Source: TPA_inf: Saccharomyces (taxonomy: Eukaryota). From it: a stretch of DNA of 64,000 nt. Below, piece by piece: positions 1,860 to 52,179 of the stretch. The stretch's first letter is position 1; each line of letters begins with the position of its first letter. The DNA lies in assembly GCA_000146045.2 (NCBI GenBank), contig BK006934.2, forward strand, positions 64,001 to 128,000, read 5' to 3'. The notes below the pieces were generated by a model. It was given only the letters and a program-made list of their open reading frames with translations. It made no database searches and was not told the DNA's origin. The translations under genes and the position numbers were made by a program.

Positions 1860-2128
1860 CTTGTGTTGGTAATTGGTTTCTAATAATTATTTTTTCTTTT
1901 TAACTTGGAATATGTTCCTGGCCAGTTGTGAAGAGTTACCCCTGATATTTGGATCTAGAAGGGCTTCTCCTTATATAGATAGCACTTTTCCTCGAGGATC
2001 AACCCCGGAAATGTATTCCCGACCCCCTTACGGCTGCGCAAAGGTCCTTACTGAGCCATTCAAAGGTAAAGAGGGTCCGATAATAATGGTAGTTCAAAAG
2101 GGGAGAAGCGGGGCTGGTACAATATCAC

Positions 2129-2164
2129 GATTATGATTATGATTATGATTATGATTATGATTAT
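2129..2164. repeat. Hexanucleotide microsatellite (GATTAT)x6 in the AIM17-OPI1 intergenic region
   Basis: Direct read: gattat repeated 6 times with no interruption. Confidence 0.9.
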
Positions 2165-2241
2165 GGATATTATATAAACTATATTATTCCGTATAATATT
2201 ATTACTGGTGGTAATGCATGAAAGACCTCAATCTGTCTCGG

Positions 2242-2572
2242 TTAGTCCTTGCTATCCACGTTGTCCTGAGAGGGCTTTACGTAATTGCCATCCTTCTGCT
2301 GTTGCTGCCTGTACTGTTGCTGCTGTTGCAAGAAACGCTCCCTGATCATTTCTTTTACCTCCTGTTTCTGCTTCACCCATTCTTCAGCCTTGCCCAACGT
2401 GGAGTCGACTACGCCCATGACATTTCTCACCATTTCCAGGGATTCTTTGGCGAGAATGAGTACTTTCCCATTCGCAGTTACGGAGGAGGACGGCGAGGCT
2501 GAGTCGTCGCCATCCTTGTTCCTTTTTTGCTGTTGCTGTTGCAGGAGTTGCTGCTGCAAAAGTTGCTGCTGC

Positions 2573-2603
<31 letters not shown>

Positions 2604-3456
2604 CCACTTTTTGTTCTTCACAGTTGGCATAATGAAACGAAGCATGATGCGGCAGTGATGTACTGTGGACGCTGTCGAACCAATTTGTGGGTAAGTTTAG
2701 AAGACTTTCCCGAACCTGAGATCTTGCGGGCTCCGGCAGCGAATTTGCTGTGAACTTCGATATCAGCGAGTAGACTTTCTTGACTGTGCCGACCACCTCC
2801 ATTTTCACCACAATAGACTGCTCGCTGGCGTTGACCTGCTCTGAGGCATCAAAAAACTCCTCATCGTCGTCGTCTTCGTCTGACGATGTCTCGTCCTCGC
2901 CAGCTCCAGTGGTCGTCCTAGCATTTCCATCTTGCTTGTGCAAAGGATGCACCTGCTCCTTTTCAACAAGGTCCTGTAAACACGAGATTTTATCGGAAAG
3001 CTGCTTATTGGCCAGCTTTAAAAGATGCAAGCACGTTACAAGCCTCTTCTTAGACTCGATGGACATGTTCAGCTTGTACTCTTTCAAGTTGTCCTTCCCC
3101 TTGGCAATCGCCCGCGACAGCTTCTGTCTCTTGTTGGTGAAGAACTCATCGTCGTTGTAGTCGTAATCATCATGCTCGTCATCGTCATCGTCTAGCAGCC
3201 TCCCTATTGATTTCAGTGGCCTCTTGTTGGTGTTTATTTCATCGTAGAATGTCACTACGTTACTGATAATTTTGTTACTTACGCGATCCAAAATGTTTAG
3301 CGGCGTCGTAGACGACTCACTTGCCGGCATTTTGTCAGCTTGTGAGACGTCCTCTGAAGGCTGCGACTTCTGTCTGCATGATTGTTTCAACACCCCAAGT
3401 ACTTCAGCCGCTTCTACCTCTTCCTCTGATAATCCTAAACGTTGATTTTCAGACAT
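2242..3456 (-). CDS. OPI1: OPI1 (YHL020C), transcriptional repressor of phospholipid biosynthesis genes, 404 aa
   Basis: ORF 2242..3459 starts MMSENQRLGLSEEEVEAAEV; I place the start at the second Met to give the 404-aa length I recall for Opi1. Contains the Opi1 glutamine tracts (Q12, LLQQQLLQQQQQ) and a leucine-zipper region. Confidence 0.88.
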
Positions 3457-21060: not shown

Positions 21061-21297
21061 AACAATTGCTTCAGCCTTATTCTTCGTTAGTTTATACTGG
21101 AAGTAAAGCAAACACCTACTGCCCCTTTTATCGAAATGATAAACAAATAAGAAAGCTCAGAGGGCCTCCGGTAATATTCAAATCGATCTGTTTTATAATG
21201 CTTATTGAATAATAATGCCGTTGCTGTACTCTTAACATAAAGCTACGAAAATCCACTATACATTTTTCTAAAGAAAAAAAAAAAATTCAAAAAAAAT

Positions 21298-21371
21298 TGA
21301 TTTCGCCCAGGATCGAACTGGGGACGTTCTGCGTGTTAAGCAGATGCCATAACCGACTAGACCACGAAACC
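21298..21371 (-). tRNA. tV(AAC): tRNA-Val (anticodon AAC), 74 nt, intronless
   Basis: Minus-strand read GGTTTCGTGGTCTAGTCGGTTATGGCATCTGCTTAACACGCAGAACGTCCCCAGTTCGATCCTGGGCGAAATCA folds as a cloverleaf (D-loop AGTCGGTTA, anticodon loop TTAACAC, T-arm GTTCGATCC); internal A/B boxes present. Confidence 0.9.
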
Positions 21372-21387
21372 AAATTCTTATTGATTA

Positions 21388-34342: not shown

Positions 34343-34795
34343 CTATCTGATAATATGGTCCCAGAATCGCAATAGCCGGGCAGGCACGCTACTAGAAGGC
34401 GGTTCTGGATAGAATTCAACTTTAGATGGCAGACTGAGGCACTGCCGTAACACAAGGCTAAGTAGCCGCAGCTGTTGCGGTCCATCTTGTGTCGCGGTGA
34501 GATCCCACAATCCATAGACGAGTACATTAGAGTATTGCGGACCATTCGCCTGCGCTTGCATCCGGGTGAGGTACATGTATAAGTACTTTACCCGGCCCAA
34601 AAAAACTACGGATACCCGCTCCCGGCTTGCCACGTGACCTGCCACAGTGTTCGTAGTCACGTGCTCCTTCAGTCCTCCTAACTCTACGTACTTCCTGGCA
34701 GTGTCTCCAAGGACTATCACCAGTACGTTTGGGCTTGACTGATCCAGGCTCCAATCGCTTTCTACTAGCTGTTGCAACCGCTCTTCAAACTGCAT
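34343..34795 (-). CDS. SHU1: SHU1 (YHL006C), Shu-complex subunit (error-free post-replication repair / homologous recombination), 150 aa
   Basis: 150-aa ORF at the expected position between STE20 and MRP4; no diagnostic motif, so the identification rests on synteny and length. Confidence 0.72.
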   Translation of the reverse strand: MQFEERLQQLVESDWSLDQSSPNVLVIVLGDTARKYVELGGLKEHVTTNTVAGHVASRERVSVVFLGRVKYLYMYLTRMQAQANGPQYSNVLVYGLWDLTATQDGPQQLRLLSLVLRQCLSLPSKVEFYPEPPSSSVPARLLRFWDHIIR

Positions 34796-38611: not shown

Positions 38612-39970
38612 ATGTCATCATCTGCGATTAAAATAAGGAATGCACTGTTGAAGGCAACAGATCCCAAGTTGAGAAGTGATAACTGGCAATACATTTTAGA
38701 TGTTTGCGATTTGGTGAAGGAAGATCCCGAAGATAATGGACAAGAGGTTATGTCTCTTATAGAGAAGAGGCTAGAACAACAGGATGCTAACGTGATCTTA
38801 AGAACCCTCTCTTTGACGGTATCTTTGGCAGAAAATTGTGGTTCCCGCTTAAGACAGGAAATTAGTTCAAAAAATTTTACCTCTTTGTTATATGCGCTCA
38901 TCGAGAGCCATTCTGTACACATTACTCTAAAAAAAGCGGTGACTGATGTTGTCAAGCAACTGTCTGATTCATTCAAGGATGACCCATCATTACGCGCCAT
39001 GGGAGATCTATATGACAAAATTAAAAGAAAGGCTCCATATTTGGTACAGCCTAATGTACCAGAGAAGCATAACATGAGTACCCAGGCAGACAACTCAGAT
39101 GATGAGGAATTACAAAAAGCACTAAAAATGTCTTTGTTTGAGTACGAAAAGCAAAAAAAGCTACAAGAACAGGAAAAAGAAAGTGCCGAAGTCCTTCCGC
39201 AGCAACAGCAGCAGCATCAGCAGCAGAATCAAGCTCCTGCTCACAAAATACCGGCACAAACCGTTGTGAGAAGAGTTCGGGCTCTATATGACTTAACCAC
39301 AAACGAACCGGATGAATTGTCCTTTAGGAAGGGCGATGTTATTACAGTGCTGGAACAAGTATATAGAGATTGGTGGAAGGGAGCTCTTCGAGGAAATATG
39401 GGTATATTTCCATTAAATTATGTAACACCGATTGTTGAGCCATCGAAAGAAGAAATTGAGAAGGAAAAAAATAAGGAAGCCATAGTATTCTCTCAAAAAA
39501 CTACCATAGATCAACTTCATAATTCGCTTAATGCAGCTTCTAAAACGGGAAATTCAAATGAAGTTTTGCAAGATCCTCATATTGGAGATATGTACGGATC
39601 TGTAACGCCTTTGAGACCTCAAGTTACGAGAATGTTAGGTAAATATGCTAAAGAAAAAGAAGACATGTTATCCCTGCGTCAAGTCTTAGCAAATGCAGAA
39701 CGCTCATATAATCAACTAATGGATCGTGCAGCTAACGCACATATCTCACCACCAGTTCCAGGCCCTGCACTCTACGCAGGAATGACTCATGCTAATAATA
39801 CTCCAGTAATGCCACCTCAGAGGCAGAGTTACCAAAGCAATGAGTACTCACCTTACCCTTCTAATTTGCCAATCCAACATCCTACGAATAGCGCAAATAA
39901 TACCCCACAATACGGTTATGATCTTGGATATTCAGTTGTTAGCCAACCACCACCTGGTTATGAACAATAG
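38612..39970 (+). CDS. HSE1: HSE1 (YHL002W), ESCRT-0 subunit (VHS domain, UIM, SH3), about 452 aa
   Basis: N-terminal VHS domain, a UIM ([17 protein letters not shown]), an SH3 domain ([50 protein letters not shown]) and a Q/P-rich tail. Start placed at MSSSAIKI. Confidence 0.86.
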
Positions 39971-40225
39971 CCCTTCAACTTATATAGCACCTTTACATAT
40001 CTTTAATTTTTACGAAGAGCATTTTATTCAACTTTTGTACCTTTAAAGACGGTTTTCAGCCCACACATTTTTTGTTATTTTACACCACACAGTAAAACTT
40101 TCTTGCTTTTTTTTCTTGAGACTCCCCGACCATTGTTCGATATTCCAATTTTCGCAATCTTCAGAAAAGGGTATCCTAACATTCTAAATTAATAATAAAG
40201 AAGAGAGGCTACAAGCATTTATTAG

Positions 40226-41091
<866 letters not shown>

Positions 41092-41585
41092 AAAAAGAAG
41101 AATAATTCTAAAATCCATAGGTAAGTACTGAAAGCAATTTTGCGTTCCGTCAATGCATATTATATATATTAATCTTAACCATTTATGTAAACAACATATC
41201 ATTTCATTTTGTTCTGGCCACATTCCCTGTTCCTCTCAATATAGTGATGTTTTATAAGGGATATTCTTTGCGGCTCCATTATAAATACACTTTACCATGA
41301 GAGTTTCCTCACCAGCTATATTACTCGCGCCAACTACCATTCGACGCAAGGAACAAAAAAGCATCTAGATAATAGTAGAGAGGTGGTGATACACCCTCAG
41401 GTTGCTATGACGATATATTCTCCGTAAATTCTTTCTTACGATTATTCCTTTAGATCGGCAAGAGATTTGGGCTTGAGGAAGCGATAAAATTCTTTGTTGA
41501 CAAAACTCTCCCTTAGTGCTTGTGAAATAAACATCAATAATCATTTTTTTATTTTTCGCGTTTTTAAGATAATGTCTTAACCAAT

Positions 41586-41703
41586 TTTCTAAGTTCGGAA
41601 CACAAAACCCAATGTTTAATCATTTTTAATAAACAATTTAGTATATATATTATTTTAATTTTATTAAATTAATTAAAATTAAAAGAATTATTAGTCATGT
41701 GAT
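41586..41703 (-). other. CEN8: Point centromere (CEN8-like): CDEIII 41586..41610, CDEII 41611..41695, CDEI 41696..41703; CDEI-to-CDEIII runs on the minus strand
   Basis: CDEI: plus-strand catgtgat is ATCACATG on the minus strand, matching RTCACRTG. CDEII: 85 bp with 6 G/C, about 93% AT. CDEIII (minus-strand read): GTTTTGTGTTCCGAACTTAGAAAA with the essential central CCG and flanking TG/AAAA. It lies exactly at the YHL/YHR boundary between RPL14B and OSH7. Confidence 0.85.
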
Positions 41704-42054
41704 TACCATCCTACTTATTATACTAAATCGTTTTGTGGATGTGTAATTGTTGGAGTTCTTCTTATCTACTTTTTAACTTGTGTGTAATTAGAGCTGTACA
41801 TTCAAGGTAAGGAATGTAATGCACCAATGATTACCTAAATCAAATTCGAAATATGTATCAGTATATTATAGGAATGTTAATTCGCTCGTGCGTACTAATT
41901 TTTCCGAGGTCACTCGCAAATCCAGAATTCTAAAGGATGAAAGTATATTTTCTGAAATCGTCAACAAAGAAGGGATGTGATATATTCAAAATGGAAAGAT
42001 TCCTCCTTCTTTCATTTAGAAATAGGAAACTAACCAGTAAATTAGAAACAAAGA

Positions 42055-43368
42055 ATGGCTCTCAATAAACTAAAGAATATACCTTCTTTAACAAACAGTT
42101 CTCATAGCTCAATTAACGGCATTGCATCCAATGCTGCAAATTCCAAACCAAGCGGAGCAGACACGGATGATATCGATGAGAATGATGAATCTGGGCAAAG
42201 TATTCTATTAAATATTATTTCCCAGCTGAAGCCAGGTTGTGATTTATCTAGAATCACACTTCCGACATTTATTCTGGAAAAAAAATCGATGTTGGAGAGA
42301 ATCACTAATCAATTACAATTCCCAGATGTTCTTTTAGAAGCACACTCCAATAAAGACGGGCTGCAAAGGTTCGTTAAAGTGGTAGCATGGTACCTAGCAG
42401 GTTGGCACATTGGGCCCAGGGCTGTGAAGAAGCCCCTAAATCCCATTCTTGGAGAACACTTTACAGCTTATTGGGATTTGCCTAACAAGCAACAAGCCTT
42501 TTACATTGCAGAACAAACGAGTCACCATCCTCCTGAATCTGCGTATTTTTACATGATTCCAGAATCGAATATTAGAGTTGATGGAGTTGTTGTGCCAAAA
42601 TCGAAATTTTTAGGAAACTCAAGTGCTGCAATGATGGAGGGGTTAACTGTATTGCAATTCCTTGATATCAAGGATGCAAATGGTAAACCAGAGAAATATA
42701 CTCTATCGCAACCAAATGTTTACGCAAGGGGAATTCTGTTTGGCAAGATGAGGATTGAATTGGGAGATCACATGGTCATTATGGGTCCTAAGTATCAAGT
42801 GGATATTGAGTTCAAAACAAAGGGCTTTATTTCTGGTACCTATGATGCAATTGAAGGTACAATTAAGGATTACGATGGTAAGGAATACTACCAAATTAGT
42901 GGTAAGTGGAATGATATTATGTATATCAAAGATTTGAGGGAAAAAAGCTCTAAAAAGACTGTTCTCTTCGATACTCATCAGCATTTTCCTCTAGCTCCTA
43001 AAGTCCGCCCATTGGAGGAACAGGGAGAATACGAATCGAGAAGGCTTTGGAAGAAGGTTACGGATGCGCTGGCTGTACGTGACCATGAAGTAGCTACAGA
43101 AGAAAAGTTTCAGATAGAAAACCGCCAAAGAGAGCTGGCCAAAAAGAGGGCCGAAGACGGCGTTGAATTTCATTCAAAACTATTTAGAAGGGCAGAGCCA
43201 GGTGAGGATTTAGATTATTATATTTACAAGCACATCCCTGAAGGGACCGACAAGCATGAAGAACAGATCAGGAGCATTTTGGAAACTGCCCCGATTTTAC
43301 CAGGACAGACATTCACTGAAAAATTTTCTATTCCGGCTTATAAAAAGCATGGAATCCAAAAGAATTAG
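42055..43368 (+). CDS. OSH7: OSH7 (YHR001W), oxysterol-binding-protein homologue (ORD-only, PS/PI4P transfer), 437 aa
   Basis: OSBP fingerprint EQTSHHPP and downstream ORD conservation; lacks PH/FFAT regions, consistent with the short Osh6/7 class. Confidence 0.9.
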   Translation: MALNKLKNIPSLTNSSHSSINGIASNAANSKPSGADTDDIDENDESGQSILLNIISQLKPGCDLSRITLPTFILEKKSMLERITNQLQFPDVLLEAHSNKDGLQRFVKVVAWYLAGWHIGPRAVKKPLNPILGEHFTAYWDLPNKQQAFYIAEQTSHHPPESAYFYMIPESNIRVDGVVVPKSKFLGNSSAAMMEGLTVLQFLDIKDANGKPEKYTLSQPNVYARGILFGKMRIELGDHMVIMGPKYQVDIEFKTKGFISGTYDAIEGTIKDYDGKEYYQISGKWNDIMYIKDLREKSSKKTVLFDTHQHFPLAPKVRPLEEQGEYESRRLWKKVTDALAVRDHEVATEEKFQIENRQRELAKKRAEDGVEFHSKLFRRAEPGEDLDYYIYKHIPEGTDKHEEQIRSILETAPILPGQTFTEKFSIPAYKKHGIQKN

Positions 43369-43825
43369 GCTTCTCATTCTATTTTAATTATACTAGTACG
43401 ATTTCTCACTCTGTAATTTAATATCAGTGTAATATGCACCTAGTTATGGGTAGTTTTTGCTAACGTTACGAGCCGCGAAACTGTCCTCAATCTTCACCAC
43501 TACCTCTAATGACTGAAGAATGCTATGCGATATAACGCTGTCGCACTTTGAATATATACTTATATTTACATAGTTTTCAAGTGCGTATTACTATTGCAAA
43601 GTAGTATTTTGTCACGTGATTTTGATCCAATTAAAACTAAATATGGTTCAACCCGTTGTTTCCGCATCAAAAAACCATACCATTTATCAAGGGGACGGGA
43701 TATATCACATAACAGTTTGAATGCATAATTTGTTATAGATATCTTCTGGAATAATCTTCACAGCAAAAGCGCAAGTCGAATAATATATCGATAAATACAA
43801 TCCATAAGACTTAAAACTAACCTCA

Positions 43826-52106: not shown

Positions 52107-52179
52107 TGCTTCCAATCGGATTTGAACCGATGATCTCCACATTACTAGTGTGGCGCCTTACCAACTTGGCCATAGAAGC
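52107..52179 (-). tRNA. tT(AGU): tRNA-Thr (anticodon AGU), 73 nt, intronless
   Basis: Minus-strand read GCTTCTATGGCCAAGTTGGTAAGGCGCCACACTAGTAATGTGGAGATCATCGGTTCAAATCCGATTGGAAGCA; anticodon loop CTAGTAA; T-arm GGTTCAAATCC. Confidence 0.88.

Follow-up and report, generated by a model that had tools for sequence, protein, structure and literature searches.

[quoted passage not shown] The A+T content of CDEII is above 90% in S. cerevisiae (PMC3983907) and spans 76-98% across species (PMC3141009). As to the proteins involved, Cbf1 has been placed on CDEI, CBF3 on CDEIII, and a single Cse4 nucleosome on CDEII (PMC3983907, PMC6442628).

The closest described system for the locus analyzed here is CEN8, the centromere of chromosome VIII. 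Gordon et al. (2011) list Scer_CEN8 as a 119-nt sequence at Chr8 complement(105581..105699) (Table S2, PMC3141009), and Table 1 of the same study derives two S. cerevisiae centromeres, CEN8 and CEN11, from the ancestral CEN2 and lists both in antisense orientation. CEN8 has served to build minichromosomes, and each of the 16 centromeres has been turned into CEN8 (PMC6442628). Mutation of CDEI at the endogenous CEN8, with Cbf1 serving as a transcriptional roadblock, triples the loss of chromosome VIII (PMC9371891). Furthermore, when the native CEN8 was replaced by URA3 on a physically dicentric chromosome VIII, in which the transplanted copy was inactive, no colonies were obtained (PMC10667555). 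In that work Lauer et al. (2023) defined a 'minimal 118-bp CEN8', in which the right arm adjoins CDEI and the left arm adjoins CDEIII. A minichromosome with these 118 bp was poorly retained, as judged from a red colony area of 9% compared to 70% for a 5-kb construct. Addition of the CDEIII-proximal flank, either 500 bp or 1.5 kb, largely rescued the 118-bp CEN8, whereas 1.5 kb of the CDEI-proximal flank did not (PMC10667555).

Anatomy and identity of the element

The element was located in a 64-kb stretch of DNA, hereafter referred to as the window, which corresponds to chromosome VIII of S. cerevisiae S288C, as its predicted products of 437 and 357 amino acids match S288C OSH7 and LEU5 exactly. 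A direct read of the minus strand from 41703 to 41586 revealed 118 contiguous base pairs in a collinear arrangement of 8, 85 and 25 bp. CDEI (41696..41703, minus strand) is the 8-bp sequence ATCACATG, a predicted Cbf1-binding site that fits both RTCACRTG and the cross-species invariants NNCAVBTG. It is followed by CDEII (41611..41695, minus strand), an 85-bp spacer with only six G or C residues (79/85 A+T, 92.9%), which would be wrapped by a single Cse4 nucleosome. Nine runs of at least three A or T bases cover 39% of CDEII. CDEIII (41586..41610, minus strand), the putative CBF3-binding site, has the 25-bp sequence GGGTTTTGTGTTCCGAACTTAGAAA and reaches 41585 when the 26-bp definition is applied. 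Its central CCG (41596..41598, minus strand; CGG on the plus strand) would provide the essential Cep3 contact and is kept in every orthologous locus. Compared to the textbook 25-mer consensus, 20 of the 25 positions of CDEIII match. The five mismatches are GGG for TGT at positions 1-3, which accounts for two of them, together with G10, C18 and G22, and all positions reported as invariant are intact, namely CCGAA at positions 13-17, G2 and G8.

We compared these features with the consensus ranges from PMC3983907 and PMC3141009, where CDEII of S. cerevisiae point centromeres measures 78-86 bp. The element displays the CDEI consensus, the length and A+T content of CDEII, the CDEIII invariants and the collinear contiguity of a point centromere. 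The preliminary description of this DNA had reported CDEI-CDEII-CDEIII on the minus strand with an 85-bp CDEII of 93% A+T, and our recount reproduced the coordinates, length and composition to the base. It had also named a mutated central CCG and a CDEII length outside 78-86 bp as observations that speak against a functional centromere; the CCG proved to be intact and the 85 bp lie inside this range.

From 41703 to 41585, the 118 bases of the element and the A that follows them reproduce the 119-nt Scer_CEN8 entry without a single difference. The published coordinates stem from an older release of the reference, so that the numbering differs while the sequence does not. The orientation in the window likewise agrees with that of the minimal CEN8 of Lauer et al. 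(PMC10667555): CDEI is on the side of the right arm and the OSH7 promoter, and CDEIII on that of the left arm and the RPL14B 3′ end. The central reading of the preliminary description, a point centromere between RPL14B and OSH7, was borne out: the element is identical to the published CEN8 and agrees with it in strand and length, and the gene names proved to be right. We consider it virtually certain that the element is CEN8, the point centromere of S. cerevisiae chromosome VIII.

Uniqueness of the element and alternative readings

Conceivably, an E-box-like octamer, an AT tract and a CCGAA could have come together by chance in ordinary AT-rich intergenic DNA that has no centromere function. 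On their own the motifs are indeed common in the window, where RTCACRTG occurs 7 times, TTCCGAA 12 times and CCGAA 68 times when both strands are counted. Their combination, however, is not. The compound pattern TCACRTG-N(84-104)-TTCCGAA matched once, against 0.02 matches expected per window from dinucleotide-preserving shuffles. The distance from TCACRTG to TTCCGAA is 95, as positions 1-10 of CDEIII precede TTCCGAA, and the same pattern with a shorter spacer (N(76-90)) had no match in the window. A relaxed compound scan of both strands of the 64 kb, which allowed at most one CDEI mismatch, a spacer of 70-99 bp with at least 80% AT, and CCG in register, returned this site alone. The count of one such element applies to the 64-kb window; a point centromere should occur exactly once per chromosome. 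Moreover, the most AT-rich 85-bp segment of all 63,916 is exactly 41611..41695, that is CDEII itself, with 79 A+T as opposed to 74 in the runner-up. Chance also fails to account for the identity to the published CEN8, or for the preservation of the architecture at the syntenic position of two further species despite a randomized CDEII sequence. This conservation pattern and the published functional assays already refute a chance co-occurrence, which we regard as the least probable of all readings, to the point of being negligible.

Yeast origins of replication are AT-rich and centromeres replicate early, and the AT tract might therefore be primarily a replication origin (ARS) instead of a centromere. 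Against this, the 11-bp ACS WTTTAYRTTTW is absent from both strands of 40900..42200, while four matches are present elsewhere in the window, and an origin would leave the fixed spacing of 84-86 bp between CDEI and CDEIII unexplained. With the ACS lacking in this interval, we rejected an origin as extremely improbable. A regulatory role for OSH7 was weighed as well, in which a Cbf1-bound promoter element next to a nucleosome-depleted AT tract, instead of a kinetochore site, would account for the sequence. In favor of such a role, CDEI has the form of a Cbf1-type E-box and precedes the OSH7 start codon by 352 bp, transcription of OSH7 leads away from CDEI, and Cbf1 acts as a roadblock to transcription at CEN8 (PMC9371891). 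Yet the octamer holds CACATG and not the palindromic promoter form CACGTG, and the conserved block upstream of OSH7 lies elsewhere, at 41852..41971. A promoter would explain neither CDEIII nor a CDEII of constrained length. In addition, the roadblock is part of centromere biology and no alternative to it, and the chromosome-loss phenotype of the CDEI mutation has already been reported (PMC9371891). A promoter function in place of a kinetochore site is thus about as implausible as the origin, and the reading of the element as CEN8 stands.

Orthologous loci and strain variation

Syntenic loci were collected via the OSH7 orthologs from S. kudriavzevii (L001), S. uvarum (L003) and ten S. cerevisiae-type assemblies. 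Each locus with sequence across the RPL14B-OSH7 gap contained one CDE element in that gap, on the same strand. One assembly, GCA_000568055.1 (L009, about 2000..3000), has 901 N across the RPL14B-CEN8 region, and its centromere is an assembly gap. The comparison was made by segments anchored on the CDE parse. In a whole-gap MAFFT alignment, a length difference of ∼350 bp on the CDEI side led to misplacement of the S. kudriavzevii centromere. CDEI lies 698 bp from the OSH7 ATG in S. kudriavzevii (L001 2303..3000), the distances in S. cerevisiae and S. uvarum being 351 and 349 bp, respectively. The extra ∼350 bp in S. kudriavzevii may be an insertion, perhaps the remnant of an LTR.

In both S. 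kudriavzevii and S. uvarum, CDEI reads GTCACATG (7/8 identical to the window) and the core of CDEIII reads TTCCGAAC. The S. kudriavzevii CDEII measures 84 bp with 89% AT and is followed by a CDEIII starting with TGGGTTTGATTTCCGAAC; in S. uvarum CDEII measures 86 bp with 88% AT, and CDEIII starts with TGTGTTTGTGTTCCGAAC. CDEIII of these two species is 68-80% identical to the window, as opposed to 46-48% in the shuffled control. For CDEII the identity of 61% does not exceed the 61-62% of the shuffled control, while the length is held at 84-86 bp. What is constrained in CDEII is length and composition, and not primary sequence. We also noted that the S. uvarum CEN8 (L003 2533..2651) and the published Sbay_CEN8 (Table S2, PMC3141009) have CDEI in common and are nearly identical in CDEIII. 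Between their CDEII sequences no relationship is apparent, even though both nominally come from one species or from sister species.

Among the S. cerevisiae strains, which were retrieved through an identical OSH7 protein and are hence not a random population sample, CDEII contains 11 segregating sites in 85 bp (pi = 0.061) and has a constant length of 85 bp. The corresponding pi values are 0.001-0.007 for the flanks and 0.0005 for the OSH7 coding sequence. CDEII is therefore ∼10-60 times more polymorphic than the flanks, and no variation was detected in CDEI and CDEIII in 10 S. cerevisiae sequences. Three or more CDEII haplotypes could be distinguished in the S. cerevisiae-type assemblies (L004-L013; window 41612..41685). 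The main alternative haplotype differs from S288C at 9 sites, 7 of which are clustered in the CDEIII-proximal third (41612..41634). All of these differences are substitutions, so that the 85 bp are kept, and they bring the A+T content from 92.9% to 96.5%. Taken together, the locus displays retained synteny, conserved CDEI and CDEIII elements, and a highly polymorphic CDEII that is conserved in length and composition only. This signature is the published pattern of point-centromere evolution (PMC3155921).

The sister centromere CEN11 and the ancestral CEN2

At the locus of the OSH6 paralog, in the same assembly as L004 (proteins labelled S. pastorianus), a CDE element of the form TTCACATG-87 bp (84% AT)-TGTGTTTGATATCCGAAC was found between MET14-like and VPS1-like genes, as on chromosome XI, and with the strand orientation that CEN8 has relative to OSH7. 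This agrees with the proposed descent of CEN8(-) and CEN11(-) from the ancestral CEN2 (PMC3141009). CEN11, the sister of CEN8 from the whole-genome duplication, resembles CEN8 in its tripartite plan and in its strand relative to the OSH6/OSH7 paralog. In both centromeres CDEI contains CACATG and not CACGTG, and CDEIII contains CCGAAC and not CCGAAA. In contrast, the CDEII sequences are unrelated. Furthermore, CEN11 is located between MET14 and VPS1, whereas CEN8 is positioned directly between RPL14B and OSH7, the intervening genes having been lost on chromosome VIII.

In a Zygotorulaspora-like pre-duplication locus (L016), the MET14-VPS1 gap contains a plausible GTCACATG-137 bp-TTCCGAAC element. 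No convincing combination of CDEI, AT-rich spacer and CDEIII was detected under the criteria used in the MET14-VPS1 gap of Torulaspora globosa (L015 4417..5257). A CDEI with CACATG and a CDEIII with CCGAAC were observed in all descendants of the ancestral CEN2 that were examined (window 41586..41703, L001, L003, L014 and L016). The presence of CACATG and CCGAAC in the CEN2 lineage may represent inherited centromere-specific variation, or it may be a coincidence.

Flanking genes and the intergenic gap

On the CDEIII side the element is flanked by RPL14B (YHL001W; 40278..41091, plus strand), which consists of exon 1 (40278..40406), an intron (40407..40803) with the signals GTATGT, TACTAAC and TAG, and exon 2 (40804..41091). 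The open reading frame at 40807..41091 (plus strand) matches the Pfam family Ribosomal_L14e (E = 5e-34), and in the orthologous loci RPL14B is represented by a gene call of 138 aa. OSH7 (YHR001W; 42055..43368, plus strand), an exact match to S288C, belongs to the Pfam family Oxysterol_BP (E = 2e-78). RPL14B is transcribed toward CDEIII, and OSH7 away from CDEI. The two genes had previously been called convergent, but both are on the plus strand and accordingly in tandem, as was in fact implied by the wording "3' end ... 5' end" of the same account. The gap between them, first given as 960 bp, amounts to 963 bp on recount (41092..42054).

The segments 41100..41560 and 41700..42050, which had been put forward as highly AT-rich, have AT contents of 65.1% and 68.4%, respectively, compared to a mean of 62.3% for the window, which is mostly coding. 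For the full flanks we obtained 66.2% (41092..41585) and 68.5% (41704..42054), and 20% and 9%, respectively, of the windows of the same size are at least as AT-rich. An AT content of 65-68% therefore represents ordinary intergenic composition. The related idea that AT-rich flanks on both sides contribute to pericentric chromatin does not predict the published flank effect, which is one-sided (PMC10667555).

Two blocks within the gap are conserved when the invariant columns of S. cerevisiae, S. kudriavzevii and S. uvarum are considered. One of them, 41092..41211 (plus strand), covers the RPL14B 3′ UTR and terminator; 75-85% of its columns are invariant in the three species, and it includes an efficiency-type element, TATATATA, at 41161..41168. 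The other block, 41852..41971 (plus strand), is situated 85-200 bp upstream of the OSH7 ATG with 50-65% of the columns invariant and, judging from its conservation and position, is probably the OSH7 promoter. The suggestion that the gap lacks promoter motifs hence holds only in part: TATAWAWR does not occur between CDEI and the OSH7 ATG, but this conserved promoter-like block does. Scans of 39500..43000 for Reb1, Abf1 and Rap1 yielded no sites.

Further afield in the window, two GTCACGTG Cbf1-type sites are arranged in inverted orientation at 34631..34663, with octamers at 34631..34638 (minus strand) and 34656..34663 (plus strand). The starts of their CACGTG cores are separated by 27 bp, and the pair resembles a promoter under Cbf1 control. 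At 43611..43620, between the OSH7 stop codon and the position of a QCR10-like small gene that is called at the equivalent position in related loci, there is a palindromic Cbf1-type E-box, GTCACGTGAT. At the centromere and in its vicinity, an Rfam gathering search gave no hit to a structured RNA family. ARAGORN predicted two tRNAs on the minus strand, tRNA-Val(AAC) at 21297..21372 and tRNA-Thr(AGT) at 52107..52179, of which the Rfam search recovered only the tRNA-Thr.

Discussion

Since the element is identical to the one used in published experiments, protein binding can be predicted from that identity. The bHLH protein Cbf1 would bind CDEI, and the CBF3 complex, composed of Ndc10, Cep3, Ctf13 and Skp1, would bind CDEIII, where the zinc cluster of Cep3 would read the CCG. 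Acting together, Cbf1 and CBF3 would position a single Cse4 (CENP-A) nucleosome on the AT-rich 85 bp of CDEII, and this nucleosome would then nucleate the kinetochore, leading to the capture of a single microtubule.

A plasmid stability assay with the short element had been proposed as a check, and its outcome is already in the literature. The 118-bp CEN8 has partial function, while full function needs ∼500 bp of flank on the CDEIII side (PMC10667555). Measured from the final base of CDEIII, this 500-bp flank, which CEN8 requires to be fully functional on minichromosomes and at ectopic sites (PMC10667555), extends over 41086..41585. The authors left the rescuing sequence in the CDEIII-proximal flank undefined (PMC10667555). 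The sole block in these 500 bp that is conserved across species is the 120-bp RPL14B 3′-end region, and RPL14B, in tandem with the centromere, is transcribed straight at the CDEIII border. According to Hedouin et al. (PMC9371891), this border is the one more permissive to transcription, and CEN8 is an exception in that its cenRNAs in G1 do not mostly enter through CDEIII. On the basis of these four observations, namely the direction of RPL14B, the lone conserved block in the flank, the permissive CDEIII border and the exceptional behavior of the CEN8 cenRNAs, it is plausible that the RPL14B 3′-end/terminator block (41092..41211) serves as a transcriptional insulator. It would then shield the CDEIII side, matching the role of the Cbf1 roadblock at CDEI. 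We offer this only tentatively as the cause of the ∼500-bp requirement of CEN8 and consider it possible but rather unlikely.

The feature itself is already known and not new, as CEN8 has been annotated for decades and studied experimentally. For a workhorse of centromere experiments such as CEN8, its detection has no weight as a discovery. The value of the present check is that the motif reading proved to be exact to the base, and that the orientation of the genes, the composition of the flanks and the notion of an 'empty' gap were corrected. The tandem ribosomal-protein gene directed at CDEIII, with its conserved terminator block, would offer a concrete candidate for the CDEIII-proximal requirement that emerged from work on synthetic chromosome VIII.
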